Assembly: GCA_050633245.1 (NCBI GenBank)
Contig: JBOEGD010000024.1
Location: 199,787-263,786 of the forward strand
DNA: 64,000 nt
Source of the DNA: Calditrichia bacterium
GTDB lineage: Bacteria; Calditrichota; Calditrichia; RBG-13-44-9; J075
Reading direction: 5' to 3'
In this document: in pieces, positions 25,023 through 51,897 of the stretch
Numbering within the stretch: the first letter of the stretch is position 1
How the letters are laid out: each line of letters opens with the position of its first letter
Position numbers and translations under genes: made by a program
The notes under the pieces: generated by a model
Database searches by the model: none
What the model saw: the letters and a program-made list of their open reading frames with translations, nothing else
Told to the model about the DNA's origin: nothing

Positions 25023-25023
25023 A

Positions 25024-29253: not shown

Positions 29254-29262
29254 TGTTTTCCT

Positions 29263-30738
29263 CTAGCTTTTCAGGCCTTTTTCTGCAACCGCCAGAGCGG
29301 TTCGCAGGGCATTGGATTTGTGAATGGTTTCTTCGTATTCTTTTTGCGGATCGGAGTCTGCAACAATGCCGGCGCCAGCCTGGAAATACGCTATTCCATC
29401 ACGAACCTCAAGCGTTCGGATTGCGATACAGGTGTCCAGATTCCCGGAAAAATCGAGGTAGCCAACCGCACCGGAATAGAGGCCTCGTCTTTCCGGCTCC
29501 AGCTCCTCGATAATCTCCATGGCGCGTACTTTGGGAGCTCCGCTAACTGTTCCGGCAGGGAAACCAGCCTTAAATGCATCAATCGCATCATATCCTTCCC
29601 GAAGTTTTCCGCGTACCTCGGAAACGATGTGCATAACGTGGCTGTACCGCTCAATGTTCATATTCTCGGCAAGTGTGACGCTGCCATATTCGGACACGCG
29701 CCCCACGTCATTTCTGCCAAGGTCGACCAGCATAACGTGCTCGGCTCGCTCTTTTTCGTCTTCTAACAGATCCGTAGCGAGACGGTCATCTTCTACAGGA
29801 TCAGAACCACGCGGGCGCGTTCCGGCAATTGGTCGAACTGCTACCTCACCATTTTCTACGCGCACAAGAAGTTCCGGACTAGAGCCAATTATGCTTTGGC
29901 GTTTTCGTCTAACGTAAAAGAGATAGGGCGATGGATTGATTTGTCGAAGGGCTCTGTAGATGTAAAAAGGAGGAACGTTTACTTTGCAGGAAAATTGTTG
30001 CGATAGGACGACCTGAAAAATATCGCCTGCCTGGATGTATTTCTGTGCGCGTGTTACCGCTTGTTGAAACTGTTGCGGTTCGAAATTCGAATGAATCTCC
30101 GCGGCCTCTCTTTCTTCGCCCTCAATAAGGTCGATAGGGCGCTGTAGGATTTGACGATAGCTCTCGATGCGTCGGATGGCCTGATCGTAGCTTCGCCTTA
30201 AGTCATCATCTTTTTCGAGGATAATATTGGTGATAATCAAAATGCGATGTTTCAGGCGATCGAAGGCCAGAATGGTGTCGTACAGACCAAAACCGGCAAG
30301 TGCTGTATTTTCGAGCGGCGCGTTTTCTTCGGGCAGCTTTTCAATGAAACGAACGGTATCATAACCGAAAAATCCGACTAATCCACCCGAAAAACGGGGT
30401 AGCTCGGGATCATTGACAAACGTATAAGAAGCCAATTTCTCTTTTAGAAAAGCGAAGATATCGCCGGTATGCGATTCTGAAGAATCGTCTGTGCTAACGA
30501 CGATTTTCTCTCCGTCGAACTCAATGTATTCGCGTGGATTGCAACCGAGAAAAGAATAGCGAGCGACGTGCTCTCCACCTTCAACAGATTCGAACAAAAA
30601 ACCATCATCATTCCCGGGGCAAAGTTTCAAAAAGGCAGACACCGGTGTTAGCAAATCGGCAACAATTGAGCGGGCAATCGGAATTACGTTGCCTTTTTTC
30701 GCTTGTTCTGTAAAGCGTTCAAATGATATAGGTTGCAT
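29263..30738 (-). CDS. trpE: anthranilate synthase component I
   Basis: Chorismate-binding C-terminal motifs (GYLDFSGNLD, IRTL). Confidence 0.95.
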   Translation of the reverse strand: MQPISFERFTEQAKKGNVIPIARSIVADLLTPVSAFLKLCPGNDDGFLFESVEGGEHVARYSFLGCNPREYIEFDGEKIVVSTDDSSESHTGDIFAFLKEKLASYTFVNDPELPRFSGGLVGFFGYDTVRFIEKLPEENAPLENTALAGFGLYDTILAFDRLKHRILIITNIILEKDDDLRRSYDQAIRRIESYRQILQRPIDLIEGEEREAAEIHSNFEPQQFQQAVTRAQKYIQAGDIFQVVLSQQFSCKVNVPPFYIYRALRQINPSPYLFYVRRKRQSIIGSSPELLVRVENGEVAVRPIAGTRPRGSDPVEDDRLATDLLEDEKERAEHVMLVDLGRNDVGRVSEYGSVTLAENMNIERYSHVMHIVSEVRGKLREGYDAIDAFKAGFPAGTVSGAPKVRAMEIIEELEPERRGLYSGAVGYLDFSGNLDTCIAIRTLEVRDGIAYFQAGAGIVADSDPQKEYEETIHKSNALRTALAVAEKGLKS

Positions 30739-32203: not shown

Positions 32204-33682
32204 TTACTCGGATATGGTTAGGTTGTAGACGTTTTCGGAAGGGATTAGCGTATCAAAAATCTCTTCATTATGCGAGATCAACAGAATGCCTTTGCCACGT
32301 GCAGTTGCCTGCTGCATAGCCACTATAATGCGCTGAATGCTCTTAAAATCAAGCCCGTTAAGCGGTTCATCGAGAATCAACAACGGCGTATCCAGGCAAA
32401 ATGTGCGTAGCAGATTAAGGCGCTGTTTTTGTCCACCACTGAGAAGCTTTACCGGTTTATCCCAAAAAGCATCCGTTACGCTCATCTGAAACCATTCTTC
32501 CAGCTGTGCTTTTAGCTGGCTATCGCTCAGGCGTAGTTCTTTGGGAAGGCCGTTAAACACATCGCTCACGGTTGCATTGAGATTCAATGCCTCATCTGCA
32601 TGCTGAAAGACCATTCCGGCTTGTCTGCCCCAGATCTGTTTGCGCCACAGTGTTTCTGGTGTTTTTTCAGTAATTGAAATATCACTGAGCATTAGCTGCA
32701 CCTTTTGCGCCCTTGTTAATCCCATTGCGATTTTTGCCAGCGTTGTTTTGCCAACGCCACTTGCAGCCTTTACATAGACGATTTCACCACCGTGAAGCGT
32801 TAGCGGGCATACTGTCTCCGAGTTGCTTTTGCTAATTCGCATGGTTTTATCGAAAACCCGATAACCGCTCTCTATCCGTAGCAGAGAATTGGTTGAGGCA
32901 GAGGAGGACGGTGTATCTGCTGCTGCTGTTCTAAGCCACGATAAATAGGCTGCCGGTTCGAAATCGGTCATTTGAAGTTTCTGCTGTCGCGTCAGCTCCT
33001 TAAAGGCAATGTCGGATTTCAAGTCGGGATGTTGCTGATAAATTTCAGTGATTATAGAGTAGTCGTGGGTAATGATGAGACCGGAAAAAGGCGTTTTCCG
33101 ATAGGCATCGAAGAGCATCTTTAGAAAAATATTTCTGAAATTATTATCCAAACTGCCGGTTGGCTCATCAAAAACAAACAGTTCGCCATCTTGACCATTT
33201 TGCAATGTGCTAAGTTTCTTAAACGCCATTGTCAGCAACATGCGCTGCTTCTCGCCACCACTTGGCCGATAGGGGCGTGGAAAAATATCCAGCAGTTCCT
33301 GAATTGGTTCCTGGTTTTCCGTATTCCATAACTGCTTTAGAACTTCAGCTTCATTTGTCGCCGGAGCGAGGGCACCTTCATTGAGCTGTTCCTTCAGCAG
33401 GAGGAGTGGGTTTAAATGGGATGAGGGTTCTTGAAAGACAAAAAAACCGTGCTCCTGTTTTTTCTGCGCAATACTGTTTTTTAAATATTCATGATACGTG
33501 TGGCCATTAATAGTAATGTCCAGTGTGTTCGGATCGAGCAAGCCATAAACTGCCCGGGTTAAGATCGATTTGCCGATTCCAGATTCCCCAAACAGAAGGA
33601 CAATTTTGTCTTCGGGGAGAGAAAAGTTCTCTATTTCAACAATTGTTTTTCCGCGTTTGGAAATTTGTATTTCGTAGTTCAC
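32204..33682 (-). CDS. ABC-type ATPase with two tandem nucleotide-binding domains and no transmembrane domain
   Basis: Two Walker A motifs (GESGIGKS, SGVGKTT) and two ABC signatures (LSGGEKQR, LSGGQKQR). Confidence 0.75.
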   Translation of the reverse strand: MNYEIQISKRGKTIVEIENFSLPEDKIVLLFGESGIGKSILTRAVYGLLDPNTLDITINGHTYHEYLKNSIAQKKQEHGFFVFQEPSSHLNPLLLLKEQLNEGALAPATNEAEVLKQLWNTENQEPIQELLDIFPRPYRPSGGEKQRMLLTMAFKKLSTLQNGQDGELFVFDEPTGSLDNNFRNIFLKMLFDAYRKTPFSGLIITHDYSIITEIYQQHPDLKSDIAFKELTRQQKLQMTDFEPAAYLSWLRTAAADTPSSSASTNSLLRIESGYRVFDKTMRISKSNSETVCPLTLHGGEIVYVKAASGVGKTTLAKIAMGLTRAQKVQLMLSDISITEKTPETLWRKQIWGRQAGMVFQHADEALNLNATVSDVFNGLPKELRLSDSQLKAQLEEWFQMSVTDAFWDKPVKLLSGGQKQRLNLLRTFCLDTPLLILDEPLNGLDFKSIQRIIVAMQQATARGKGILLISHNEEIFDTLIPSENVYNLTISE

Positions 33683-33851: not shown

Positions 33852-35996
33852 ATGGTTCAAAGGGATTTGGGAAAGGGAAGAGGGATGAACTTTTCGCATA
33901 CGCGATCGAATGCCGCTTCAGAGATGCGCATTTTATATAAAATATCGATGTCGATCGGTACCAGTCTGGATTTAGATAAGATGCTACAGGCATGTTTGTC
34001 TACTTATATTCGTCAACTAAATGGACTTGCGGCCGCGGTATTTAGCTATGCAAAGCATTCCGAAAGTAAATACGCCTATCGGTTGCGTTATTCTATTCCA
34101 CGTCAAATTGAAGTAGTGAGGCCGTTTCAGCAATTATTGGATGCAATCCCTGAAGAACTTTCCGAGGAGGAGTGGCTTGATTTCGAAGACCGTCTACCGC
34201 TTAACCGCGTTGTCGCAGGGAAAAGCCACGGATACCTTCTAAAATTGCCTGGATTTGGGGTTTTAGTTTTGCTTTGTAAGGGAAAATTGCCAAGACAACT
34301 TGTCGATCTGATAAATGACCTCAGTCTGAAACTCGCGAGCGCCTGTAGTGCTTGCTTGCAAAATGAAGAATTAAAGCAATCTCACATACAGCTAATTGCA
34401 ACAAATGAAGAAGTAACATCCCGAAAACGAGAGTTAGAAATTTCTCGCGAGAAGCTGGTTTTTGCAATGACAGAGCTTACCGGGGCGAAAGATGCGGCAG
34501 AGGCTGCGAGTCGGGCAAAGAGTGAATTCCTCGCTAACATTAGTCACGAGCTGCGTACTCCACTCAACTCTATCCTTGGATTTTCCTCACTTCTGAAAAA
34601 CTTATCGCAGAATAAGGTCGCTGAAGAATATCTCGAGGCGATATCGTCGAGTGGCAAGAGTTTATTAATGCTCATAAATGATATTCTTGACCTGTCAAAA
34701 ATTGAAGCCGGGGCATTGGAATTGATGTGCAGACCGGTAAATCCGCGAGAACTGTTTTTAGATGTCGGTCGCATCTATCACTTTAAGGCAAATGAGAAGG
34801 ACCTGACTTTTAAACTGTCGCTTTCCAAGCGTATGCCCAATGAACTTATGCTGGATGAAATTCGACTTCGTCAGGTCTTAATAAACCTGGTTGGTAATGC
34901 CATCAAATTCACCGATCGTGGATTTGTCGCTATTTCTGCCTCTGTTAAGATTTTAGACCCGGCAGAACAAATGGCGAATTTGATTATCGAGGTATCAGAC
35001 AGTGGAATAGGAATTCCTCCGGAACAGGCACAGCGGGTGTTTCAGGCATTTGTGCAGCAGAGTGGGCAAGATAATCGCGAGTATGGGGGAACGGGTCTGG
35101 GATTGGCGATAACAAGGCGATTGGTCGAAATGATGGATGGCCAGGTATCACTTACGAGTAAGAGTGGTCATGGCTCGACATTTCGAGTGGAAATTCCGAA
35201 CATTCTGATTGTCGATTCGGGGCCCGACTCCGGTGAATTTACTACGGAAGACAAGGTGGTTATGCCGGAGCAACTGGCTGGGGGGCACATTTTGCTTGTA
35301 GAAGATAATCCATTGAATCGACGGTTGATAAAAGAATTTTTGAAAACGAGTTCAGTGAGAATTAGCGAGGCTGAACACGGCTTTGAGGCATTGAAACTTG
35401 CCATAGAAGATCCACCAGACCTCGTGCTTATGGATTTGCAGATGCCGCAGATGGATGGCTATGAAGCGACCAAAAAATTTCGAAAGCATCCAGATCTTCA
35501 GGACATTCCGATTATTGCGCTTTCGGCAAATGCGTTGCGCGATCAGCAACGTAGAGCGCTTGAGTCAGGTTGTACAACATTTCTTGCAAAGCCGGTATCA
35601 CAGGAAGATCTGGTTCGCCTGATTAGTGATTACCTGCCGCTAAAGGAAGATTTAGAGACCGAGTATTCTCCGGTCGAAGAAGTTGAGCAAGAGGAAATGA
35701 CGCTACATGGGGATTTGGAATTACTGGTAACATTGCTTCAGGGAGAGCGATATGACGAATGGCAGAGCGTATCGGAAACGATGATTATGTCTGATATTGC
35801 GGATTTCGGTAAGCAAATATCCAGTTTGTCAGATGAGTATGGGGTGGAGCTCCTCAAAAGTTGGGGAGCCAAAGTTACTGAATGTGCTCAGGCATTTCAG
35901 GTAGAAAGATTGAATGAGATTTTGCCCGGCTTTTCTGAAGTCGTTGAAAAAGTTGTCGAAAGTGTAAACAGACAAGGAAGTGTTCAGAAAGTGTAG
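33852..35996 (+). CDS. hybrid sensor histidine kinase (N-terminal sensory region, HisKA, HATPase_c, REC)
   Basis: H-box [16 protein letters not shown]-box [14 protein letters not shown], and a receiver segment [13 protein letters not shown]...[16 protein letters not shown]. Confidence 0.85.
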
Positions 35997-37305
35997 TACG
36001 TTCAGGGAGGACGTGATGGCTGCATTTAGCCCGGAAATAGATATAAAAGATTCACTGATTCTAATTGTTGATGACATTCCTCGTAATATTCAGCTACTGG
36101 GGAATATCCTTTCGAAAGATGGCTTTAAGGTCGCTGTTGCAAATCATGGTAAGCAAGCTCTTACGATTATTGATAAGCGGCAACCCGATCTAATTCTGCT
36201 TGATGTTATGATGCCGGAATTAAACGGTTATCAGGTTTGTGAACGAGTTAAGAGCTCTGAGGCAACGGCAGACATTCCGATAATTTTTCTTACTGCAAAA
36301 AATGATGTTGAGGACAAACTACGCGGCTTCGCTGTAGGCGGTGCGGACTTTGTTACAAAACCATTTGAGCCGGCAGAGGTCATTGCCCGGGTGCATACTC
36401 AACTTCGTCTAAAAAAAATGTCCGACCTTCTCAAGCTCCACAATACCCAATTGGAGGAGATGCTGGAAAACCGAACTCAGGCTCTCATTCGATCTGAGCG
36501 TCATTCTGCATTCAGCCTTATGATTCAGGGAATTATTCATAACCTTAAAAACCCTCTCAACCTTATTTATGCGGGTTGCCAGTTTATTGAAATGGAAAAG
36601 CCACAGATAAATATGATTATGCAGCGTCTTCCAGAGCGGCAGGCAGAGCCACTTAATCAGCGATTGGAGTATATCTGGAAAAGCGCAGTTATGATTGATA
36701 AAGGTTCCAAGCAACTGCTGGAGATGGTGGATTCCATGATGGCTAAAAGCCGCAGTGATCAGCAGGAAAATCTGAATAAGATAGATCTGAATGTGTTGGT
36801 TCAGCAGGAATATGAGTTTCTGTTATCCGACCCTGATTTTCGTCATGGTATTGGTCGTAAGCTGGAGGTTTGCAGCAGCTACTTACCAGTTTGCATTGTT
36901 CCAGCCGAGATCGCACAGGTGTTACAAAATTTGATTCGAAATTCCCTCGATGCGTTGCGCGGTAGACCTCAACCCAATATTTCTGTAAAAACCGGGAAGT
37001 CTGAAAATACAGCATGGATCGAAGTGGAAGATAATGGAACAGGTATTCCGGCAGATTACCTTAGTAAAGTATTTGAACCCTTTTTTACAACAAAACCTGC
37101 TGCAGGTAAAGCACGTGAAGGTGAACCGTCCGGTACCGGATTGGGATTGCATATTTGTAAGGCGATGGTAGAAGCCCATCATGGTAAAATCAAAATCACC
37201 AGCAAACTAAACATCGGAACGTGTATTCGAGTTGAACTTCCTTTGGTTGTCACCGAGATGGGCGAGAAAGTGGAATATCATCCAGAGAAGGTAACCAGCC
37301 TCTAG
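35980..37305 (+). CDS. response-regulator receiver fused to a histidine-kinase-like ATPase (REC-HK)
   Basis: N-terminal REC ([11 protein letters not shown]...[16 protein letters not shown]) and C-terminal HATPase_c ([18 protein letters not shown]). It overlaps the upstream kinase gene by 17 nt. Confidence 0.8.
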
Positions 37306-37658: not shown

Positions 37659-38330
37659 ATGAGAGAAGTTTTCGACGTCTCTTTAACTGGCGCGAATTTA
37701 CCCTACACAATCTTACTCGGATTGGTTCTGCTTTACTGGATCAGCGTTATTATCGGCGCTCTGGATATCAGTTTTTTGGATGTTGATATTGATGCAGACG
37801 CTGATATTGATGTTGATATTGATGCAGACGTCGAAGCAGATATCGAAGGAGCGGAAGGTGCTTTCTCTGCTCTGGACACCCTCCTAACGTTTATGAATTT
37901 GCGCGACATTCCCTTTATGATCGTCTTCAGCATCTTTTCATTGATTCTTTGGATGGGAGCGCTGATAGGTAATCATTTAGTTGGTGGACAATCCTGGCTG
38001 TTTTATTTACTGGCCTTTTTCCCGAATATCCTGGGTTCAATGCTAATAACTAAAGTAGTAACCACGCCACTTCGCCCGCTATTTAGAGCTTTCAAGGACA
38101 CCGGCGATGCGCGAGTTGAAGTGGTGGGACAAATTTGTACTATTGTCAGCCCTGCAGACTCTCAGCGATTAGGGCAAGCCGAAATAACGCTTTCGGGAGC
38201 CCCGCTGCTGCTGAATGTGAAAACCTGGAAAGAGAATGCCCTTGGGAAAGGTAAGCGCGCGATTGTGATTGAAAAAAGTAAAGATGGTGACTATTACATT
38301 GTAGAAGAATTTAACGAATGGGAGAACTAG
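37659..38330 (+). CDS. YqiJ/NfeD-like membrane protein with a C-terminal OB-fold
   Basis: Two TM segments. An acidic DVDIDADADIDVDIDADVEADIEG repeat is encoded by a 30-bp tandem duplication at 37779..37838. The C-terminal beta-rich ~80 aa resemble an NfeD OB-fold. It lies immediately upstream of the flotillin gene, the canonical nfeD-floT arrangement. Confidence 0.6.
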   Translation: MREVFDVSLTGANLPYTILLGLVLLYWISVIIGALDISFLDVDIDADADIDVDIDADVEADIEGAEGAFSALDTLLTFMNLRDIPFMIVFSIFSLILWMGALIGNHLVGGQSWLFYLLAFFPNILGSMLITKVVTTPLRPLFRAFKDTGDARVEVVGQICTIVSPADSQRLGQAEITLSGAPLLLNVKTWKENALGKGKRAIVIEKSKDGDYYIVEEFNEWEN

Positions 38331-40409
38331 ATGAACTTCATTACAGACGTATTATTTTCGGGAGGGTTAATCCTTCTGATATTGGGAGTTGGCGTATTCG
38401 CCTGGCTTGTCCAGCGCTATAAGAAAATAGACCAGGGAATGGCCATTGTTCGCAATGGGATTGGCGGATCGAAAGTCAGTTTTACCGGCATGTTTGTTTT
38501 TCCTGTTCTGCATCGCGGAGAATACCTCGACATCTCGGTTAAACGAGTAGAGATTGAGCGCTCAGGCAAGGATGGGCTTATTTGTGAAGACAATATTCGT
38601 GCAGATATAAAGGTTGCATTTTTTGTACGCGTAAATAAAACTGAGGAAGATGTGCTTAAAGTAGCGCAATCACTCGGCACATCACGTGCATCCGATCAGC
38701 AGGCACTCATCGATTTTTTTGACGCCAAGTTTTCAGAAGCTCTGAAAACCGTCGGTAAGCAGTTTGCCTTTGTCGATCTATACAATTCGCGTGAACGCTT
38801 TAAGAGTGAAATTCTGCAAACGATCGGTACCGATCTCAACGGTTATGTGCTCGATGATGCGGCCATTGATTATCTTGAACAAACGCCTTTGGATTTCCTG
38901 AGCGCAGACAATATTCTCGATGCCCAGGGTATTAAGAAGATCACCGATATTACCGCGCAGCAAAGCATCTTATCTAATCAGATCGCTCGCAATAAGGAAA
39001 AAACAATTACCCAGCAGGATGTTGAAGCACGCGAGGCGATTCTTGAGCTTAACCGCCAGCTGGCTGAAACGGAAGAACGTCAGAAGCGCGAGATTGCCTC
39101 TATTAAGGCACGTGAAGAAGCCGAGGCAGCGCGGGTAGAACATGAAGAAAGATTGAAGTCTGAGCGAGCTCGCATTCTAACGGAAGAAGAACTGGCGGTT
39201 GCTGAAGAGAATAAGCTGAGACAGGTCATTGTTGCTGCGAAAAGCAAAGAACGCACCGATGCTGTAGAGAACGAGCGTGTACTGAAAGATAAGTTTCTTG
39301 AGCAAAACGAACGCGAGCGCGTAGTATCATTAGCGCAGATTGAAAAAGAGCGTGCGATTGAAGAAGAACGCAAAAACATTCAGGAAGTTATTCGTGAACG
39401 AATAGCGGTTGAAAAGTCGGTGGTGGAAGAAGAAGAGCGCATCAAGGATACACGCGCCATTGCTGAAGCTGATCGCAAGAAGCAGGTTGCACTGACCTTT
39501 GCAACACAGGAGGCTGAAGAGGCAAAAACCCGTGAAGTTATTGCTGCTGATGCTGCCCGCGAAGCGGCTCGAATGAAGGCCGAGCAGGATGTTATTGAAG
39601 CCGAAGCCTCAAAAGAAGCAGCTACTAAAGAAGGTGAAGCTCGCAAAACACTTGCTGAAGCACAAGCTGCTGAAGAAGCAACGCTCGGACTCTCGGAAGT
39701 GCAGGTGCTGGAAGCAAAAGCGAATGCAATCGAAAAACAGGGATCTGCTGAGGCGAATGTGCTTGAAATGAAGGCTACCGCTGAAGCCCGTGGCATTGAA
39801 GCAAAGGCTGTTGCACTCGAAAAGGAAGGAACGGCAGAAGCAACGGTGATGTCGAAAAAGTTCTCTGCTGAAGCGCAAGGCATTGAAGATAAGGCCGCAG
39901 CCATGAAAAAGCTGGACGGCGTTGGAAAAGAGCACGAAGAGTTTAAGTTGCGCCTGGATGTAGACAAGCAGGTGAAGCTGGCAAAAATTCATGTTCAAAA
40001 GGATATCGCGGAGGCACAGGCATCTGTGATTCGGGAAGGCTTGCAGGCAGCGAATATCGATATCGTTGGTGGCGAAAGTATGTTTTTCGATAAGATTGTC
40101 GGTTCCATAAGCAATGGTAAAGCGATTGACAGATTCATGGAAAACAGTACGACCGTGTCGGATATCAAGGATACGTTTTTTAGCGGTGATGCCGATGAAT
40201 TCAGCAACAGACTGCAAACCTTTATCAGTCGATTTGGCATGTCATCTGCCGATCTGAAGAATCTGACCATCTCGGCGCTCATTGCAAAGCTAATGGGTTT
40301 AAGCGGAGACAATGAAATCGATACCTCTCTTCTACATCAACTACGCGACTTTGTTGAGATGAAGGGAATCGGCAGTAAGCCAGCGTCATCACTACTAAAA
40401 CGCAAGTAG
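38331..40409 (+). CDS. flotillin-like SPFH/band-7 protein (YqiK/FloT-like)
   Basis: N-terminal TM segment. SPFH domain (GMAIVRNGIGGSKVSFTGMFVFPVLHRGEYLDISVKRVE). A long Glu/Ala/Lys/Arg-rich coiled coil follows, typical of flotillins. The start is 1 nt after the preceding stop. Confidence 0.85.
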   Translation: MNFITDVLFSGGLILLILGVGVFAWLVQRYKKIDQGMAIVRNGIGGSKVSFTGMFVFPVLHRGEYLDISVKRVEIERSGKDGLICEDNIRADIKVAFFVRVNKTEEDVLKVAQSLGTSRASDQQALIDFFDAKFSEALKTVGKQFAFVDLYNSRERFKSEILQTIGTDLNGYVLDDAAIDYLEQTPLDFLSADNILDAQGIKKITDITAQQSILSNQIARNKEKTITQQDVEAREAILELNRQLAETEERQKREIASIKAREEAEAARVEHEERLKSERARILTEEELAVAEENKLRQVIVAAKSKERTDAVENERVLKDKFLEQNERERVVSLAQIEKERAIEEERKNIQEVIRERIAVEKSVVEEEERIKDTRAIAEADRKKQVALTFATQEAEEAKTREVIAADAAREAARMKAEQDVIEAEASKEAATKEGEARKTLAEAQAAEEATLGLSEVQVLEAKANAIEKQGSAEANVLEMKATAEARGIEAKAVALEKEGTAEATVMSKKFSAEAQGIEDKAAAMKKLDGVGKEHEEFKLRLDVDKQVKLAKIHVQKDIAEAQASVIREGLQAANIDIVGGESMFFDKIVGSISNGKAIDRFMENSTTVSDIKDTFFSGDADEFSNRLQTFISRFGMSSADLKNLTISALIAKLMGLSGDNEIDTSLLHQLRDFVEMKGIGSKPASSLLKRK

Positions 40410-40451
40410 GAAACCTAATGGTCGCCATGCTAAAAACAGTATTGGCGACCA

Positions 40452-43400
40452 GTGATGCGGACAGAATTTACGTTGAGGAAATCCATGACGGATAATATAC
40501 AAGAAGAGCAGCTACCGGTTGATGCACCGGAACAACAGCTTGAGGGTGGCACCTACGAGCTTATTCGCAATCGCCTGAGAGGGCAGGGTGAGGAGCTGCG
40601 CGGACGTCTTGAAAAGCTGAATGCAGAACGTAAGGAAGTGTTCGGTTCAATAGACAGCCGTTTGCTGAATACCGATCGAATTACCACCGAGCATAATTGT
40701 TTGCCGCAAGATATGGTGCCAATCGGAAACCTGTTTATCTTTGGCTACAATGTACATATCGGCTTGAAAAGCGAAACCAGCATATCGGATGTGCTTTCGG
40801 TTTATCGTTATTCGGATCATGCTTTTCATTTAACCGAACCGACTCTCCTGCAAAATCGCGAGTTTGAAGACGACTTCCGCAATCTCTATAAATACTACAA
40901 GAAAACGCGTTTTGTGAAGTTCTCGGTGATTGGCCCCTATTTATATATGGCTTTTCAAATTGGTCGTAGTACCACCGATATTAAAACTTTTAAATGGCTG
41001 ATTAGGGACAATGCGCTTGAATATGTAGACAATCGCAGTGAACATGAATTTCGCTTTCCCGCGCAGCAGGAAGTAGATTGGAAGCGTGCTACGCGAGATT
41101 TTCATCGGGATGGAGACCATCCACATGTCTCTATTGCAGATCGATTATTTGTTGAGTCGATCGGTGGTGACCTAACGATCAAGATTGAAGATAATACCGA
41201 TTCGGGTGAGGGAATATATGCCGAACCCGTAGACCATAAAGAACAGTTACTTGATGATGCTGAGATCTTTTATGCACTTGCCGGCGACTTAATTCTCCTT
41301 AAAATCAAACCGTTTCAGGAAAAAAACTTTCGCTATCTGGTGTATAGCGAAAAAAATCAGCAGGTTCGCCGTGCAGATAGTATCCAGGATTCCTGCATCT
41401 TCCTGCCGGATGATCATGGAATTGTTTTCGCCAAAGGTTATGTCTTGCAAAGCGGTACGTTCAAGCTTTTCGAGCATGAGCTACAAAATATTCGCTTCGA
41501 GAAACAATGGGCCTCACCAAACGGAGAGGATCATCTCTTCGTCTTTTTCCAGCCGGAAAGCGGAACGTATGTGTTATTGCGATACAATGTAATTGCACAA
41601 GCAGTAGATGTTCCGCTCTTATGCAGTGGTTATGCGCATTTTGAAAATGGTGAGATGGTATATTTTCGAGCGGAAGAAACACCCGGCAAACATCATGCAG
41701 CTCAGATCTGGCAAACGCCTTTTGTAAGTCCGGAATACAATCCTCCGGTTAAAAAGGGCTCGTATCTTTATAAAATAGGGAATAAGGACATCGTCCGTTG
41801 TATGTCGGAGTGTCAAGAAGTCTATAATCTGGCATTCAGAGACGATTCCTATGCGAACCTCTATGTCGATATTGTTAAGAAAAGCCGCGATATTCTCGAT
41901 TCCTACTTTTGGCTCACCGAACCGAAAGCTCAAAATTTAAGCGAACCGCTACAGTCCCTTCACGATGCCGGTGCGGCAGCTTTGGCCGAGTTCGACAAGG
42001 TAGAGCGACTACGGCGAACTGCTCGCGAAGAGCTTTTAAAAGTAAAAAAACAAACAGAGGCCATTCTTGAAGAGACAAAACGACCAGACTTTAAGACAGT
42101 AGACAAGTATGTCGAAAAACTGACTGCACTTAGAACGTTGCGAGGCGAACTGATTTCGCTGCGCGACGTTCGCTATATCGATCTTAAAGCAATTGAAGCA
42201 TTGGAAGATGCTATCTCTGAACGTAGCGATATGTTGTCTGCAGCATGCGTCGAGTTTTTACTAAAACCAAATGCCTTAGAACCATATGGAGTGAAGGTTG
42301 CTGAACTCGACAAGCGGATTCCGGACGTCAGTAAAGTTGCGGTAGGCAAGGTGCTTGCTGAGGATATCGATAAAGTTGCTGCTGAACTTGAGATGTTAAT
42401 TGAGGTTGTCAGTAATCTTAAAATAGACGATGCAACGCAAACCACCGAAATTGTGGACAGCGTTTCTACTATTTACAGTACGCTAAATCAAACGCGAGCT
42501 CGCCTGCGCAAACGAATTTCTTCCCTGCAAAGCACTGAGGCAATTGCCGAGTTTAACGCGCAGATAAAGCTGCTTGGTCAGGGACTGATTAATTATCTGG
42601 ATCTATGCGAGACCCCCGAAAAATGCGATGAATACCTAACCAGACTTATGGTGCAGCTCGAAGAGCTGGAAGGCCGATTTGCCGACTTTGATGATTTTAT
42701 CCTACAGCTCTCTGAAAAGCGTGAAGAAATTTATGGCGCTTTTGAATTGCGAAAAATTATGTTGGTCGAGTCGCGAAATAAGCGCGCTTCTACTTTACAG
42801 AGCGCAGCAGAGCGCATCCTGAAAGGCATTCAAAACAGACTATCTGCTTTCGATACGACGGCAGCAATTAATGGTTACCTGGCTTCCGACTTAATGGTGG
42901 ATAAGGTCCGGGACATCATTGAGCAACTTACCAATCTTGGCGATACCATTAAGGCCGACGATATACAAACCCGGCTCAAAACGCTGCGCGAAGATACGGT
43001 GCGGCAACTAAAGGACAAGAAAGAGCTCTTTGTAGATGGCGAGAATGTCATCAAAATGGGGGAGCGACGCTTTTCCGTAAACACGATGAAGCCGGATCTT
43101 ACTATTTTACCTCATGAAGATGGAATGGCGCTGCATCTTACCGGAACGCGGTTCTTTGAGGCGTTGGAGGATGCTGTCTTTTTGGAAACTCGTCCGGTCT
43201 GGAAGCAGGAAGTTGTTTCAGAAAGTGCCGATGTTTACCGCGCGGAATATTTGGCCTGGCAGATACTTCAGGATGTCGTTCAGTCCCGAAGCGACACTGC
43301 TTCGCTTGCTGGTAAGAAATTACTTCCAGCTGTGCAGAAGTTTATGAACACCCGTTTTGAAGAAGGCTATGTAAAAGGCGTTCATGATGCGGATGCCGCC

Positions 43401-45425
43401 TTGTTTTTAAAAAGTCTGTTAAAAATTGAAAAAGATGTGGGTCTCTTAAGATCTCCTCCGGAAGTGCGGGCTTGTGCGATGGTCTTTTGGCTGCACTTTG
43501 CAGATTCTGGCGATCGGGATCGACTTGCCGGACGACTTTCCAGCGTGGGCGAAGTATTAAATGTCTTTCCGGAAAGTGCAGAACGGCAACGTTACATTGA
43601 TGATCTCTCTGAAATGATAACGATCTGGTTAGAAGAAACCGGTTTATATAGTCTTGAGCTTGCCAAGCCTGTTGCCCGCTGCCTTTTTGAACAGCTGGTT
43701 TCGGAAAGCGATTCCTTTGTTATAAGTCATGAAGGGTCGGAACTATATGGCAGCTTTATGGCATATTTGAACAAGAAGCGTGCTCGGACTGCCTTTGATA
43801 AGTCTCTAAAGCGATTGGAGAAAGACGCACTCGGACGGATAACGCTTCTACGAGACTGGCTGATTGGTTATGCCGAGTCGCTTCCTGCTGTAATGCAGGA
43901 CGGCTATGTAGAAGAGGTTGTTGCGCTGCTTTTTTGCGACAACTATTCTGATAAGCAGGTAAAACGCGTTTCGGTGCGAGCTGAGCTGAATGGATTCCTC
44001 GGTGAACATTCTGTTCTTCAGGACAATACCTATTCGCTCGATTATCATGCGTTTAATCGCAAATTGGAAGCCTTTCATCGTCGAGAGATACCCTTGTTTC
44101 AGCGCTATCTGAAGTTGAAGAAAGAACGCATCGAGGCCTATCGTGAAGAAATGCATTTGGAAGATTTTACGCCGAGAGTGTTGACGTCTTTTGTACGCAA
44201 TAAATTGATCGATCAGCTGTATCTTCCGCTAATCGGAGATAACCTGGCTAAGCAAATCGGTGAGACCGGCGCAGCAACCCGAACGGATAGAATGGGAATG
44301 CTGCTGTTGATCTCTCCGCCGGGGTATGGTAAAACCACGCTAATGGAGTATGTAGCGAATCGACTGGGTCTGATTTTGATGAAGATCAACGGACCGGCGA
44401 TCGGGCATCATGTAACTTCACTGGATCCTGCTGAAGCGCCAAACGCTGCTGCCCGTGAAGAGGTTGAAAAACTGAATCTTTCGTTGGAGTTCGGTGATAA
44501 CGTCATGATTTATCTGGACGATATTCAGCACTGTAATCCGGAATTTCTGCAAAAGTTTATTTCGCTCTGCGATGCGCAACGGAAAATTGAAGGGGTTTAT
44601 AAAGGACGCAGTCGCACCTACGATCTGCGCGGCCGTAAGGTTTGCGTGGTGATGGCGGGGAACCCATACACCGAAAGCGGCGAGGCATTCAAAATCCCCG
44701 ATATGCTGGCCAACCGCGCCGACACCTATAATCTCGGGGATATCCTGGGCGACAATGCTGATATCTTCAAGCTGAGTTATCTGGAAAATTCACTGACCTC
44801 AAACTCAATCCTCAGCAAGCTCGCAAATAAAGAGCAAGAAGATATTTACTCGCTCATTCGCTTTGCCGAAAGCGGCGATCGCGAACAGCTGAAACTCGAA
44901 GGAAGTTATTCTGCCGATGAGGTGAAAGACTACGTTGCTGTATTTCAACGCCTGCTACGAATTCGGGACGTTATTCTTCGGGTCAACCAGGAATATATTC
45001 GCTCTGCCGGTCAGGCCGATGCTTATCGCACCGAACCGCCGTTTAAGCTACAGGGTTCCTATCGCAACATGAACAAGCTGGCAGAGAAAGTAATTCCGGT
45101 TATGAACAAGGAAGAGCTTGAATTGTTAATCGCTTCGCACTACGAGCAGGAGGCGCAAACGCTGACAACCGGTGCTGAAGCGAACCTGCTTAAGTTTCGC
45201 GAAATTAATGAATTGCTGAGTGATGAAGACGCAGAGCGTTGGGCAGACATCAAAAAAACATTCACTAAAAACCGCATGTTTGGCGGTAATGGTGGAAGTG
45301 ATCGCATGGCGCAGTTATTGGCACAGTTAGATTCATTTGGAGATGGTTTAGACGGCATTCGTGAGGTGTTGGAAAAAGCGGTAAATGCAAAACCGAAAAC
45401 AACGAAACGGAAAAAAACGCCGTAG
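40452..45425 (+). CDS. giant (1657 aa) protein with a C-terminal MoxR-like AAA+ ATPase domain. The N-terminal ~1200 aa are of unknown function.
   Basis: Walker A LLLISPPGYGKTTL (about nt 44310-44345). Walker-B-like IYLDDIQHC (about nt 44507-44535). MoxR/dynein-type sensor region CVVMAGNPYTESGEAFKIPDMLANRADTYNL. Long predicted helical and coiled-coil stretches upstream. It starts 42 nt after the flotillin stop. Confidence 0.7.
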   Translation: MMRTEFTLRKSMTDNIQEEQLPVDAPEQQLEGGTYELIRNRLRGQGEELRGRLEKLNAERKEVFGSIDSRLLNTDRITTEHNCLPQDMVPIGNLFIFGYNVHIGLKSETSISDVLSVYRYSDHAFHLTEPTLLQNREFEDDFRNLYKYYKKTRFVKFSVIGPYLYMAFQIGRSTTDIKTFKWLIRDNALEYVDNRSEHEFRFPAQQEVDWKRATRDFHRDGDHPHVSIADRLFVESIGGDLTIKIEDNTDSGEGIYAEPVDHKEQLLDDAEIFYALAGDLILLKIKPFQEKNFRYLVYSEKNQQVRRADSIQDSCIFLPDDHGIVFAKGYVLQSGTFKLFEHELQNIRFEKQWASPNGEDHLFVFFQPESGTYVLLRYNVIAQAVDVPLLCSGYAHFENGEMVYFRAEETPGKHHAAQIWQTPFVSPEYNPPVKKGSYLYKIGNKDIVRCMSECQEVYNLAFRDDSYANLYVDIVKKSRDILDSYFWLTEPKAQNLSEPLQSLHDAGAAALAEFDKVERLRRTAREELLKVKKQTEAILEETKRPDFKTVDKYVEKLTALRTLRGELISLRDVRYIDLKAIEALEDAISERSDMLSAACVEFLLKPNALEPYGVKVAELDKRIPDVSKVAVGKVLAEDIDKVAAELEMLIEVVSNLKIDDATQTTEIVDSVSTIYSTLNQTRARLRKRISSLQSTEAIAEFNAQIKLLGQGLINYLDLCETPEKCDEYLTRLMVQLEELEGRFADFDDFILQLSEKREEIYGAFELRKIMLVESRNKRASTLQSAAERILKGIQNRLSAFDTTAAINGYLASDLMVDKVRDIIEQLTNLGDTIKADDIQTRLKTLREDTVRQLKDKKELFVDGENVIKMGERRFSVNTMKPDLTILPHEDGMALHLTGTRFFEALEDAVFLETRPVWKQEVVSESADVYRAEYLAWQILQDVVQSRSDTASLAGKKLLPAVQKFMNTRFEEGYVKGVHDADAALFLKSLLKIEKDVGLLRSPPEVRACAMVFWLHFADSGDRDRLAGRLSSVGEVLNVFPESAERQRYIDDLSEMITIWLEETGLYSLELAKPVARCLFEQLVSESDSFVISHEGSELYGSFMAYLNKKRARTAFDKSLKRLEKDALGRITLLRDWLIGYAESLPAVMQDGYVEEVVALLFCDNYSDKQVKRVSVRAELNGFLGEHSVLQDNTYSLDYHAFNRKLEAFHRREIPLFQRYLKLKKERIEAYREEMHLEDFTPRVLTSFVRNKLIDQLYLPLIGDNLAKQIGETGAATRTDRMGMLLLISPPGYGKTTLMEYVANRLGLILMKINGPAIGHHVTSLDPAEAPNAAAREEVEKLNLSLEFGDNVMIYLDDIQHCNPEFLQKFISLCDAQRKIEGVYKGRSRTYDLRGRKVCVVMAGNPYTESGEAFKIPDMLANRADTYNLGDILGDNADIFKLSYLENSLTSNSILSKLANKEQEDIYSLIRFAESGDREQLKLEGSYSADEVKDYVAVFQRLLRIRDVILRVNQEYIRSAGQADAYRTEPPFKLQGSYRNMNKLAEKVIPVMNKEELELLIASHYEQEAQTLTTGAEANLLKFREINELLSDEDAERWADIKKTFTKNRMFGGNGGSDRMAQLLAQLDSFGDGLDGIREVLEKAVNAKPKTTKRKKTP

Positions 45426-47198: not shown

Positions 47199-49640
47199 AT
47201 GAAAATCCTAAAGTTCGGTGGCACGTCCGTTGGCTCTTCAGAACGTATTGAAGTGCTTCTGGAAATTGTCTCAGCAGAATATCAGCACGATCGTAACGTC
47301 GTTGTGGTTTCTTCCGCATTCTCCGGCGTAACAAATAAGCTGGTTGAGATTGGTGAAATGGCTGCAGAGGGGAACTCTGACTATCTCCAACTGATTTCAG
47401 CGCTTCGCGAAATGCACTTGCAGGTTTGTGAAGAGCTAAAGATTGGTGAGAATACTGCGATCATGGCCACTCTCGATGAGTGGTTTGCAAATCTAACTGA
47501 CATGGCACACGGTGTTTTTCTGGTGAGAGAATTGTCCCCGCGACTACGCGATTTTATTACCAGTTTTGGAGAGCGTTTTTCCTGTCTGATCATTAGTCGT
47601 GCGTTACAGCGAATAAACGTGCCAGCCGAGTATGCAGATGCACGCGAACTCATTCGTACCGATGATCAGTTTGGCGCAGCTCAAGTGGACCGAGAGATTA
47701 CCGATCGTCAAATTGTTGCTTATTTGAAAGACAATAACTCTCTGCCAATTGTTACCGGATTTATCGCGTCGACTGCGAAGGGAGAAACAACCACAATTGG
47801 CAGAGGAGGCTCGGATTATACCGCTGCGATTTTTGGCGCGGCGCTCTCTGCCAATGAAGTGCAAATCTGGACCGATGTGGATGGCGTAATGACGGCTGAT
47901 CCACGCAAGGTGCGTGGCGCTTTTTCGCTACCCGCGATTACTTATGAGGAAGCGATGGAAATGTCGCATTTTGGTGCGAAGGTTATTTATCCGCCGACTA
48001 TACAACCATTGCTCAACAAAAACATTCCCATCCGAATCATGAACTCATTTAACCGCAGCTTTGCAGGCACGTTAATATCCGCGAGCACGGTGAACTCGAA
48101 CGATTTGATGCGTGGAATAAGCTCGGTGTCTAAGATTGGACTCATTCTTTTACAAGGCAGTGGAATGGTTGGCGTTACCGGCATTGCCGGACGCTTGTTT
48201 AGCAGTCTTGCCCGACATAAAATAAATATTCTGCTCATTTCTCAAGCATGTTCTGAACATTCGATCTGTTTGGCAATAGCACCGGAACATGTTACCGAGG
48301 CAAAGTCGGCAATCGAAACGGAGTTTCACTATGAGATGTCAGCCGGCCGTATCGATCCTCCGCAAATAGAGGACTCCGGAGCAATTGTTTCTGTTGTTGG
48401 AGATAATATGCGTCATCTTCCCGGCATCTCTGCGGAAATATTCAATGCGTTGGGACGCGAAAAAGTAAACGTTAAGGCGATTGCTCAGGGTTCAAGTGAA
48501 CGAAATATTTCCATTGTAATTGACTCTGCCGATGAGACGACCGCATTAAACTGTATTCACAATGCCTTCTTTGAGCCAAAACAGACGTTGAATCTCTTTA
48601 TGGTTGGTGTAGGATTAATCGGTAGAGAACTTTTGAGCCAGATTGCGGAACAGCAAAATAGCGAAGAACCTGAGCAGGCTATTCGAGTAGTGGGTCTGGC
48701 AAATAGTCAAAAGATGTGCCTTGGTACAGTCGACCTTAGCCGTTGGGAAGACCAGCTGAAAAATAGCTCAGAAGAGTCTTCCCTAAAGGCTTTTGTGCAG
48801 GAAATACTCGCGTTGAACCTTCCCAACAGCATCTTTGTTGACTGTACCGGTAGCGATATCACACCGCCATACTACCATCCATTGCTTAAGAATGGTATCT
48901 CGGTTGTTACACCGAATAAAAAGGCCTGTTCTGCCAGCTATGCCATGTATCGTGAGCTGCAGGATGCCGCAAGACAGGATGCTTGTTTTTTCTATGAGAC
49001 GAATGTAGGGGCTGGATTGCCGATCATTCGTACTCTGAATGATCTGAAACGTACCGGAGATCCTGTTAAAAAGATTGAGGGCGTTTTATCCGGAACGTTG
49101 AGCTATATTTTTAACAACTTTACTGCTGGAACAACATTTAGCGCCTGTGTGGAAATCGCTCAAAAACAGGGGTTTACTGAGCCCGATCCGCGAGAGGATT
49201 TAAACGGAATGGACGTGGCTAGAAAGATTCTAATTCTGGCTCGTGAGAGTGGCGTTGAGCTTGAACCTGATGATGTGAAAGTCGAAAACCTCGTCCCAAA
49301 ATCCTGTAGAAGCGCTGAAACAATCGATGCATTTTTTACGGCCCTGAAACAAGAAGACGGATCGTTTGAAGAGCGACGTGCGGCTGCAGAAAAGAATGGA
49401 GAGCGCTTACGCTATATTGCCACTTTGGAGAATGGACGGGTTCAGGTTGGCTTACGAGCAGTTAATGCTGAGCATCCGTTTTACAGTTTAGAAGGCAGCG
49501 ATAATAAGATATCCTTTACTACACGACGCTATAATGATCGCCCACTTGTTATTAGCGGACCAGGAGCCGGCGCAGCGGTTACGGCATCCGGTGTCTTTGC
49601 CGATATATTACGCGTCGCAGACGAACGTATAGGTAATTGA
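47199..49640 (+). CDS. thrA: bifunctional aspartokinase / homoserine dehydrogenase
   Basis: N-terminal MKILKFGGTSV aspartokinase motif. ACT regions. C-terminal homoserine dehydrogenase (VGVGLIG). 813 aa. Confidence 0.95.
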   Translation: MKILKFGGTSVGSSERIEVLLEIVSAEYQHDRNVVVVSSAFSGVTNKLVEIGEMAAEGNSDYLQLISALREMHLQVCEELKIGENTAIMATLDEWFANLTDMAHGVFLVRELSPRLRDFITSFGERFSCLIISRALQRINVPAEYADARELIRTDDQFGAAQVDREITDRQIVAYLKDNNSLPIVTGFIASTAKGETTTIGRGGSDYTAAIFGAALSANEVQIWTDVDGVMTADPRKVRGAFSLPAITYEEAMEMSHFGAKVIYPPTIQPLLNKNIPIRIMNSFNRSFAGTLISASTVNSNDLMRGISSVSKIGLILLQGSGMVGVTGIAGRLFSSLARHKINILLISQACSEHSICLAIAPEHVTEAKSAIETEFHYEMSAGRIDPPQIEDSGAIVSVVGDNMRHLPGISAEIFNALGREKVNVKAIAQGSSERNISIVIDSADETTALNCIHNAFFEPKQTLNLFMVGVGLIGRELLSQIAEQQNSEEPEQAIRVVGLANSQKMCLGTVDLSRWEDQLKNSSEESSLKAFVQEILALNLPNSIFVDCTGSDITPPYYHPLLKNGISVVTPNKKACSASYAMYRELQDAARQDACFFYETNVGAGLPIIRTLNDLKRTGDPVKKIEGVLSGTLSYIFNNFTAGTTFSACVEIAQKQGFTEPDPREDLNGMDVARKILILARESGVELEPDDVKVENLVPKSCRSAETIDAFFTALKQEDGSFEERRAAAEKNGERLRYIATLENGRVQVGLRAVNAEHPFYSLEGSDNKISFTTRRYNDRPLVISGPGAGAAVTASGVFADILRVADERIGN

Positions 49641-50590
49641 AAGTAGTGAGGAAAAACATGCAAAAAATAATTCGAGCATTTGCACCGGCTACTGTCGCCA
49701 ATGTTGCCTGTGGATTTGATGTTCTTGGCTTTGCATTGAGCACTCCCGGAGATATTGTAACTGTTCGCAACTCCGAGAAATCCGGCGTAGATATTCTAAA
49801 TATAATTGGGGATGATGGAAAGTTGCCGCGTGAGGCCGCACGTAATACCGCTGGAATCGCAATAATATCCTTTCTTGAAGCACTGGATATTAGGGAAGGT
49901 GTTAGTGTCGAGCTCGATAAGCAACTACCACTCTGTAGCGGGTTGGGCTCCAGTGGTGCGAGTGCCGTTGCTGCGCTGGTAGCCGTCAATAAACTTTTTG
50001 ATAATCCTCTCGAGCGCGTCGAGCTGTTGCCGTTTGCGGTAGCAGCAGAGAAACTGGCCTGCGGAGCTGCTCATGCAGATAATGTTGCGCCGTCGTTACT
50101 TGGCGGATTTACGCTTGTTCGCAATGTAGATCTGTTCGATGTCGTACGCCTCAGCTATCCTGAAGTACTCTGTTGTGCGGTGGTTCACCCCCATCTCAAT
50201 CTGGCAACAAAAGATTCGCGCGCCGCTCTACCAACGCAAATAGATTTAGCTGACTCTGTGCAGCAGTCTGCAAATTTAGGTGGCCTGGTTCACGGTCTGG
50301 CAAGCGGGGAGTTCCAGTTGATTGGCCGTTGCCTGGAAGACAGAATCGCCGAACCCAATCGGAAGCGATTGATTCCACATTTTGATGAAGTAAAAGAAGC
50401 TGCGCTCGACTCCGGAGCCCTTGGCTGTAGCCTTTCAGGCTCCGGCCCCTCGGTTTTTGCGCTTTGCCAGTCTATGGAAATCGCGCAAAGTGCCGGCCGC
50501 GCAATGAAGCGTATCTTCATTGACAATGAAATTGAAGCCGATTTATTTGTCTCCCAAATTAATAAAGATGGTGCTAGGCTACTGCCATAG
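49637..50590 (+). CDS. thrB: homoserine kinase
   Basis: GHMP kinase motif PLCSGLGSSGASAVAA. It overlaps the thrA stop. Confidence 0.85.
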   Translation: MKVVRKNMQKIIRAFAPATVANVACGFDVLGFALSTPGDIVTVRNSEKSGVDILNIIGDDGKLPREAARNTAGIAIISFLEALDIREGVSVELDKQLPLCSGLGSSGASAVAALVAVNKLFDNPLERVELLPFAVAAEKLACGAAHADNVAPSLLGGFTLVRNVDLFDVVRLSYPEVLCCAVVHPHLNLATKDSRAALPTQIDLADSVQQSANLGGLVHGLASGEFQLIGRCLEDRIAEPNRKRLIPHFDEVKEAALDSGALGCSLSGSGPSVFALCQSMEIAQSAGRAMKRIFIDNEIEADLFVSQINKDGARLLP

Positions 50591-50601
50591 ATGGAGAAGC
50601 A

Positions 50602-51897
50602 ATGCAATACTATAGCACGAAGAATAAATACCTGAATGTAGCTCTCCGCGAAGCCGTTTTGCAGGGGCTTCCGCAAGACAACGGTTTGTACATGCCGAGA
50701 CTAATTCCGAAACTACAGCCGGATTTTTTTCAAAAGTTAGCTCAGATGAGCTTTCCTGAAATGGCGTATCATATTGCCAAAGCCTTCTTTGAAGAAGATT
50801 TGCCTGACAAGACTATCCGCGAGATTGTTGAAGGAGCGATAACGTTTGATGCCCCGCTGGTAGAGTTGGAAAAGAACCTCTATTGCCTCGAACTTTTTCA
50901 TGGGCCGACGCTGGCATTTAAAGATTTCGCTGCTCGATTTATGGCGAGACTCATGGGGGACTTAATTAAAGACTCTGAACAGAAGTTGACTATTTTGGTT
51001 GCTACCTCGGGAGATACCGGAAGTGCCGTTGCGCATGGGTTTTACAATGTTCCGGGCATTGATGTTGTCGTACTTTACCCTTGCGGGAAGGTGAGCAGCC
51101 TACAGGAGAAACAGATGACCACGCTGGGCGGGAACGTCTCTGCGCTGGAAGTGGCGGGTAGTTTCGATGATTGTCAGGCCATGGTTAAACAGGCCTTTTT
51201 GGATAATGATTTGCGTAAAATACGTCCGCTTTCTTCAGCAAATTCAATAAATATTGCGCGCTTGATTCCGCAGACGTTCTATTACTTCCGAGCTATAGCT
51301 CAACTTCAAGATTCATCCTTACCGACTATTGTCTCTGTGCCCAGCGGGAACTTCGGCAACCTGACAGCCGGTGTTTTGGCAACAAAAATGGGACTGCCTA
51401 TAGACGGTTTTATTGCTGCGACCAATGCAAACGACGTGGTGCCTCGATATCTGGACAGTGGTAAATTCCAGCCGAAACCATCGATTTCAACGTTTTCAAA
51501 CGCAATGGATGTGGGAAATCCGAGTAACTTTGCACGCATGCAGGATATATTTCAGAAAGATCATGCTAAGACCATTGAGTTACTTCAGGGTAGAGCCTTC
51601 AGTGATGAAGAAACGCTCGTAGGACAACAGCTTTTAGATAAACGCTATAACTATATTGCAGACCCTCATGGCGCAATCGGCTATCTCGGACTGCAGGAAA
51701 TACTTCTTGAGGGACAGGAATGCAATCGCATCTTTCTTGGAACGGCTCACCCTGCAAAATTTCCGGACGTAGTGCATCGCGCATTGAACCGTGAACCGGA
51801 TATACCTGACCGTTTACAAGTTGTGTTGAACAAAGAAGGCCATGCCGAGAAAATTTCTGCGGACTATCAGCAGCTTAGAGGAAAATTATTGGATTAG
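50602..51897 (+). CDS. thrC: threonine synthase
   Basis: PLP-lysine region FHGPTLAFKDFA; 431 aa. Confidence 0.9.
   Translation: MQYYSTKNKYLNVALREAVLQGLPQDNGLYMPRLIPKLQPDFFQKLAQMSFPEMAYHIAKAFFEEDLPDKTIREIVEGAITFDAPLVELEKNLYCLELFHGPTLAFKDFAARFMARLMGDLIKDSEQKLTILVATSGDTGSAVAHGFYNVPGIDVVVLYPCGKVSSLQEKQMTTLGGNVSALEVAGSFDDCQAMVKQAFLDNDLRKIRPLSSANSINIARLIPQTFYYFRAIAQLQDSSLPTIVSVPSGNFGNLTAGVLATKMGLPIDGFIAATNANDVVPRYLDSGKFQPKPSISTFSNAMDVGNPSNFARMQDIFQKDHAKTIELLQGRAFSDEETLVGQQLLDKRYNYIADPHGAIGYLGLQEILLEGQECNRIFLGTAHPAKFPDVVHRALNREPDIPDRLQVVLNKEGHAEKISADYQQLRGKLLD

Follow-up and report, generated by a model that had tools for sequence, protein, structure and literature searches.

A conserved module of a YqiJ-like protein, a flotillin and a giant AAA+ protein in a Calditrichia genome

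Results

Three adjacent genes encode a YqiJ-like protein, a flotillin and a giant AAA+ protein

The window analyzed here is a 64-kb stretch of a Calditrichia metagenome-assembled genome (Calditrichota), and the subject of this report is a module of three consecutive genes on its (+) strand. The genes encode a YqiJ/YuaF (NfeD-like) inner-membrane protein, a predicted YqiK-type flotillin and a giant soluble AAA+ protein (Table 1). The same three open reading frames had been reported in the original prediction made for this DNA, and their coordinates and lengths were confirmed, the third spanning 40452-45425 (1657 aa) when read from a GTG. The tight packing described there also stands, although the gaps of 1 nt and 42 nt do not. 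The stop codon of the YqiJ-like gene ends at 38330 and the flotillin ATG begins at 38331, leaving 0 intergenic bases at this junction. The giant gene more probably starts at the ATG at 40485 (1646 aa) than at the GTG at 40452 because a candidate Shine-Dalgarno sequence, GAGGAAA, lies at 40475-40481 and the NCBI protein from a Calditrichia bacterium that is 100% identical to the giant protein (P0001) is 1646 aa long. The GTG was judged the less likely start on these same grounds. The spacer between the flotillin and ATPase genes is therefore 75 nt rather than 42 nt, and residue numbers of the giant-protein domains follow the 1646-aa numbering throughout.

A stable RNA hairpin is predicted within this spacer (Table 1). 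The hairpin has no T-tract and a terminator scan gave no call. It may act on stability or stoichiometry, for instance by tuning the flotillin:ATPase expression ratio, or mark an RNA processing site.

Table 1. Features of the three-gene module. Positions are those of the window; aa, amino acids; TM, transmembrane; AF2, AlphaFold2; pLDDT, predicted local distance difference test.
Feature	Position	Strand	Basis or remark
YqiJ/YuaF (NfeD-like) inner-membrane protein, 223 aa	37659..38330	+	Pfam, profile-profile match, hydrophobic segments
YqiK-type flotillin (SPFH/band-7), predicted, 692 aa	38331..40409	+	Family profile versus E. coli YqiK
RNA hairpin in the flotillin-ATPase spacer	40419..40451	+	13-bp, -25.6 kcal/mol, z=-3.7 versus shuffles
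Giant soluble AAA+ protein, 1646 aa	40485..45425	+	Identical to NCBI P0001; no TM segment
Beta-propeller (aa 59-410), core of Pfam DUF3686	40659..41714	+	Pfam PF12458, AF2, Foldseek
Spectrin-repeat-like all-helical rod of consecutive bundles (aa 427-848)	41763..43028	+	Includes DUF7902
Helical middle domain with small beta element (aa ~919-1258)	43239..44258	+	AF2 pLDDT mostly 85-95
Predicted MoxR/dynein-clade AAA+ module (aa 1272-1634)	44298..45386	+	Beta-hairpin before sensor 1, then helical lid

The first two proteins are related to E. coli YqiJ and YqiK

Pfam assigns the first protein to YqiJ_N with a score of 23.3 bits, barely above the cutoff of 23. A profile built from 28 sequences of the YqiJ family (alignment A5) was compared with E. 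coli YqiJ by hhalign and matched over residues 4-197 of 209 (96.5%, E=7e-10). The protein has three hydrophobic (TM) segments at aa 17-35, 86-104 and 113-131, followed by a soluble tail at aa 140-223. An acidic DxD repeat, DVDIDADADIDVDIDADVEADIE, occupies aa 36-62 (window 37764-37844) in the loop between TM1 and TM2. This acidic loop is present throughout the family, with lengths that range from ~5 to >50 residues (alignment A5, columns ~60-130), and it has the look of a low-complexity loop that binds cations or serves as a spacer.

The second protein has a single TM segment at aa 7-25. This N-terminal TM precedes an SPFH domain and then a long coiled coil, whose richness in Glu and Ala can be seen in the translation, followed by a conserved C-terminal region. 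Searches with the single sequence returned no match in Pfam (including Band_7 and Flot), NCBIfam or the Protein Data Bank (PDB), even at E up to 1-10. A 33-sequence family profile (A2) aligned with E. coli YqiK by hhalign (100%, E=1.3e-40) with 32% identity over 384 columns, an alignment that spans YqiK residues 25-423 and includes the SPFH domain. The profile also gave a weak match to the QmcA cage structure 8z5g, located in the coiled-coil region of QmcA, and the NCBI name for the protein is 'flotillin family protein'. The profile comparisons identify the 692-aa product as a predicted, divergent flotillin of the YqiK type. The NfeD/YqiJ and flotillin (SPFH) identities proposed originally are thus both borne out by the alignments with the E. 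coli proteins.

The giant protein combines a beta-propeller, a helical rod and a MoxR-type AAA+ module

The roughly 1200 residues ahead of the ATPase had been regarded as uncharacterised, a description refuted by the matches to Pfam DUF3686 and DUF7902 and by the modelled beta-propeller and spectrin-like rod. PF12458 (DUF3686) matches aa 48-486 over its full profile (1-448) with E=4.6e-182. DUF7902 matches at aa 596-678, and a generic AAA domain is also found. Two AlphaFold2 models were generated from 37-sequence alignments and have mean pLDDT values of 84.6 and 83.4. A long helix (aa 21-53) precedes the propeller, which is modelled with ~27 strands at a pLDDT of ~85-94. Foldseek matches the propeller to PDB structures of the IFT-A and Elp1 WD40 domains, prolyl oligopeptidase, thiocyanate dehydrogenase and CyRPA, with E=1e-6 to 1e-3 and a probability of about 1. 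The middle domain has no sequence match in Pfam or the PDB. No hydrophobic (TM) segment was found in the protein.

The closest structures to the AAA+ module are those of two MoxR chaperones, CbbQ (a Rubisco activase) and NorQ (nitric oxide reductase maturation), and its closest structural neighbors as a group are MoxR/dynein-clade AAA+ modules. A beta-hairpin ahead of sensor 1 is seen in the AlphaFold2 model only, at model residues 528-541 between a helix (513-522) and a strand (547-553). The helix-2 insert hairpin is not seen in the model, which has a loop at that position. Pfam AAA_5 reaches 20.2 bits, just under its cutoff of 22, and about half of the close homologs carry a PF07728 record. 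The hhalign comparison with RavA is not significant (6% probability), and the profile search against PDB sequences returned only Walker-A-level matches (RuvB and p97) that are uninformative on the clade. The models place the AAA+ module in the MoxR/dynein clade, a predicted membership that supports, on structural grounds, the 'MoxR-like' label of the original prediction.

Walker A comprises G1280-T1285 (GYGKTT) and Walker B contains D1345-D1346 (YLDDIQH; window 44517-44522). N1393 and R1411 are candidates for sensor 1 and the Arg finger, respectively. An alignment of 15 sequences from different phyla shows no variation in Walker A, in D1345 and D1346, or at either of these candidate residues. 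The Walker B motif of the giant protein is DD instead of the canonical hhhhDE. The motifs listed in the original prediction, GYGKTT, YLDDIQHC and the acidic DxD repeat, are all found in the translations.

The giant gene is linked to flotillin and YqiJ genes across phyla

Homologs of the giant protein fall into >4600 clusters with about 54-59% identity and come from Planctomycetota, Bacteroidota, Desulfobacterota, Acidobacteriota and others. The N-terminal domain is almost confined to the beginning of proteins 1600-1900 aa long (751 representative clusters at 50% identity), and shorter carriers look like fragments. Identities between phyla are about 55%, 55% and 30% for the three module proteins. 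A homolog of 1711 aa with 55% identity (P0072) comes from a eukaryotic protein set (EukProt), and Pfam also lists DUF3686 in eukaryotes.

Gene neighborhoods were compared at 80 genome loci of giant-protein relatives, 66 of which are informative because they extend at least 2.4 kb upstream. A flotillin homolog lies upstream of the giant gene on the same strand in 63 of the 66. Among the flotillin-bearing loci that extend far enough, 59 of 61 have a YqiJ homolog upstream of the flotillin. The linked loci belong to at least six phyla (Bacteroidota, Planctomycetota, Verrucomicrobiota, Desulfobacterota, Kiritimatiellota and Omnitrophota), and Clostridia are represented as well. The three-gene linkage is much beyond chance, and the unit is under strong selection for co-location. 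The operonic coupling of the giant ATPase gene with the flotillin gene, first noticed in the window, is thus genuine and conserved. The original prediction had set a match of the N-terminal region to a 'DNA repair ATPase' family with an established function against the flotillin connection. A family of that name is indeed matched, but no established function stands behind the name and the linkage is not undercut.

The Pfam-scanned genes contain no VWA domain, in agreement with the missing VWA partner remarked on originally, and neither a VWA gene nor another conserved neighbor was found in the 80 loci. Many Bacteroidota loci and a few others have 0.5-2.4 kb of extra small genes between flotillin and ATPase (L005, L008, L015, L017, L020, L028, L029, L058, L066 and L075). 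The inserted genes include a biotin/lipoyl-like protein of 112-130 aa (L066 and L075) and a family of 140-185 aa (f12).

Bacteroidota loci connect the module to PspA

A PspA/IM30 gene (Pfam E=9e-41) is located nearby in 21 of the 80 loci, all of them from Bacteroidota. In 20 of the 21 it precedes the YqiJ gene by no more than ~1.1 kb; in the other (L007), it is downstream on the opposite strand. A gene for a CesT/Tir-YbjN-like chaperone (E=3e-58) is present in 19 of those 20 loci, and most of the Bacteroidota PspA loci have a divergent XRE-HTH regulator gene.

This arrangement corresponds to an operon associated with envelope stress (phage shock) and described from comparative genomics by Ravi et al. 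2024 (mSystems; bioRxiv 2020; PMC11237479), in which YqiJ/YuaF, a band-7/flotillin protein and an AAA+ protein are encoded together. The operon is linked there to CesT/Tir-PspA in Bacteroidota, and abbreviated PspA-less forms are reported to be widely distributed. The same paper proposes that the operon takes part in sub-membrane dynamics and in assembly of a chaperone-like kind, and its Table S3 lists a Dokdonia donghaensis neighborhood (ANH61663.1) with the same gene order. The full form was recovered independently here in Bacteroidota loci among the 80 neighborhoods. The window carries the abbreviated (PspA-less) form of this phage shock protein (PSP)-associated operon because there is no PspA or CesT gene in its 64 kb. 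The statement in the original prediction that the gene set could not be attributed to a described system is thus superseded, as both the operon and its PspA-less form were already in print (PMC11237479).

Other genes accompany the module in subsets of loci. A phage CII/CP76-like regulator gene (PF06892, E=3e-9) is found close upstream of YqiJ in four loci from Kiritimatiellota, Verrucomicrobiota and Opitutales (L027, L043, L044 and L047), and the corresponding position in Bacteroidota is held by the XRE-HTH gene. It therefore seems that one module has recruited more than one kind of phage-repressor-like regulator. Four loci (L015, L024, L054 and L072) share a conserved four-gene block downstream of the ATPase that consists of a DUF4178 gene and genes for proteins of ~250, 290 and 520 aa. 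This block resembles the second class of PSP-associated operon of Ravi et al. (DUF4178, DUF350 and a spermine-synthase-like protein).

Genomic surroundings of the window locus

The module lies between a complete trpEGDCFBA operon (24225-30738, -) and a thrABC operon (47199-51897, +). The locus is an ordinary chromosomal context and not a mobile island. Genes for a TetR regulator, a PNPOx-like protein and a two-domain ABC ATPase (32204-33682, -) are positioned between the trp operon and a pair of hybrid histidine-kinase genes. The kinase pair had been noted upstream of the module in the original prediction and was confirmed by Pfam. The two genes overlap (33852-37305) and are separated from the module by a gap of 353 nt. 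One product has HisKA, HATPase and REC domains; the other has REC and HATPase domains with a weak HisKA match. A similar kinase occurs near the module in only 1 of the 80 related loci, at a distance of 3 kb. The pair was rejected as a component of the module, since it is not conserved beside it in other genomes, and may be a lineage-specific regulator or unrelated.

Discussion

The gene identities, domain architecture, MoxR-clade fold, topology classes, near-obligate synteny and PspA/CesT linkage in Bacteroidota are the basis on which a function can be proposed. From them we infer physical interaction between the proteins, formation of a ring, a target for remodelling and a role in stress. The general picture that we favor, and regard as probable, is a conserved three-protein unit at the cytoplasmic face of the inner membrane that carries out ATP-driven remodelling of a scaffold. 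The flotillin would be anchored by its one N-terminal TM helix and presumably builds a large membrane oligomer walled by coiled coils, like other SPFH proteins. The YqiJ/NfeD-like protein with its three TM segments would be the membrane partner of the flotillin. The giant protein would presumably assemble as a MoxR-type AAA+ ring, with long spectrin-like arms that extend from it and have beta-propellers at their tips. The likeliest docking sites of the propellers would be the flotillin assembly and any co-encoded PspA/ESCRT-III polymers. ATP hydrolysis would then allow the scaffold to be remodelled, disassembled, recycled or loaded during envelope stress.

A more specific version of this proposal is put forward only tentatively. 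The giant ATPase may be the first machine dedicated to remodelling a bacterial flotillin (SPFH) assembly, PspA/ESCRT-III polymers, or both at the expense of ATP, working as a ring with six propeller-tipped arms and as an analogue of Vps4 or of FtsH in HflK/C. If true, bacterial flotillins would have a concrete energy-dependent cycle of assembly and disassembly.

Several points weigh against scaffold remodelling. MoxR ATPases normally work with VWA partners on enzyme complexes, not on scaffolds. The DD Walker B may mean that hydrolysis is slow, regulated or regulatory. The giant gene has no flotillin or YqiJ gene within 10 kb upstream in 3 of the 66 informative loci (L022, L025 and L034). The connection of the window locus to PSP is drawn by analogy from the Bacteroidota loci. 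The literature search found no experimental paper on the ATPase or any other member of the module, the one paper on the system being the comparative-genomics study PMC11237479. Searches on DUF3686, PF12458, flotillin with DNA repair ATPase, and YqiK with YqiJ and ATPase returned nothing, and the search on flotillin with MoxR returned only irrelevant papers.

The MoxR-type fold raises the alternative that the giant protein is a classical MoxR maturation chaperone that inserts a cofactor into, or activates, a membrane enzyme, with the flotillin and YqiJ serving only as a platform that concentrates the client. CbbQ and NorQ, the closest structures, both serve enzyme complexes, and the general view of flotillins is that they provide platforms for complexes in the membrane (discussed in PMC11237479). 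However, the VWA/MIDAS adaptor that is the hallmark partner of CbbQ, NorQ and RavA is absent, and the 80 neighborhoods hold no conserved client beyond flotillin, YqiJ and, in Bacteroidota, PspA and CesT. The combination of a propeller with a 400-aa rod is also unlike any described MoxR protein. We consider a maturation chaperone unlikely, although it is the most credible of the alternatives to scaffold remodelling.

An anti-phage or conflict system, in which a membrane-associated sensor/effector pair would act with a nucleoside triphosphatase (NTPase), is suggested by the historical 'phage shock' designation of PspA and by the phage-repressor-like neighbors, XRE-HTH in Bacteroidota and CII/CP76-like in the four loci described above. 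Large NTPases with propeller sensors are generally known to occur in conflict systems. The defense-system hidden Markov model scan named in the original prediction was run with PADLOC, and no component gave a significant match. The ATPase returned only P-loop noise (IetA at 15-17 bits, with 17 bits over 29 residues), and the YqiJ-like protein and flotillin had no match. The position between biosynthetic operons for tryptophan and threonine and the unusual cross-phylum conservation also speak against defense, as does the lack of a nuclease, protease, TIR or pore-former effector domain. A defense role was rejected on the PADLOC results and the genomic context, and it is very improbable.

Least credible of all is a DNA repair ATPase whose position beside flotillin is functionally irrelevant: it was rejected for want of any supporting feature, since the Pfam description of DUF3686 ('ATPase involved in DNA repair') and the NCBI name 'DNA repair ATPase' have no support in the literature searched, the weak P-loop-level similarity to RuvB covers ~45 residues around Walker A at 23 bits against a cutoff of 282-299, domain scans found no nuclease, helicase or DNA-binding domain, no repair genes are among the conserved neighbors of the 80 loci, and 95% of loci keep the gene in synteny with those of two membrane proteins. 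The database label is probably misleading and is spreading through annotations.

Remodelling of a membrane scaffold remains the preferred function, and it bears on two matters: the roles of bacterial flotillins and their NfeD partners, and the disassembly of PspA/ESCRT-III-like polymers in bacteria that lack a Vps4. Tied to flotillin in ~95% of the genomes that encode it and retaining ~55% identity over 1,650 residues across phyla, the giant ATPase makes a strong candidate for the energy-consuming part that has been missing. The system itself is already catalogued in Pfam (DUF3686 and DUF7902) and published as an operon (bioRxiv 2020; Ravi et al. 2024). Added here are an instance from Calditrichota, the placement of the AAA+ module in the MoxR/dynein clade, a description of the spectrin-like rod, the finding that the DD Walker B is invariant, a quantification of the synteny, and reasons to regard the 'DNA repair' label as unsupported.

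Comparison with known systems

The E. coli yqiJ-yqiK and B. subtilis yuaF-floT pairs share the two-gene unit of an NfeD-like protein and a flotillin, with homology to YqiJ and YqiK at the profile level. They differ in having no ATPase gene (the E. coli locus was inspected). The window flotillin is 140 aa longer than YqiK and diverges beyond residue 432.

CbbQ, NorQ and RavA have lengths of 250-500 aa and each works with a VWA protein (CbbO, NorD and ViaA, respectively). The giant protein, by contrast, is a fusion of 1646 aa whose Walker B is DD, and no VWA partner accompanies it. HflK/C-FtsH joins an SPFH cage to an AAA+ machine, and ESCRT-III-Vps4 pairs a polymer of the ESCRT-III/PspA family with a dedicated AAA+ disassembly enzyme. 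These two systems are functional analogies and give a conceptual precedent for the proposed mechanism. The same analogy is drawn in PMC11237479.

The closest relative is the operon of Ravi et al., which has the same order of YqiJ/YuaF, then a protein with TM, band-7, coiled-coil and flotillin regions, then a protein with beta-propeller, coiled-coil and AAA+ regions. The window differs from the full form of that operon in lacking PspA, CesT/Tir and the XRE regulator and in having two hybrid histidine kinases upstream. The AAA+ clade was left unassigned and the spectrin-like rod undescribed in that paper; the present analysis assigns the predicted AAA+ module to the MoxR/dynein clade.

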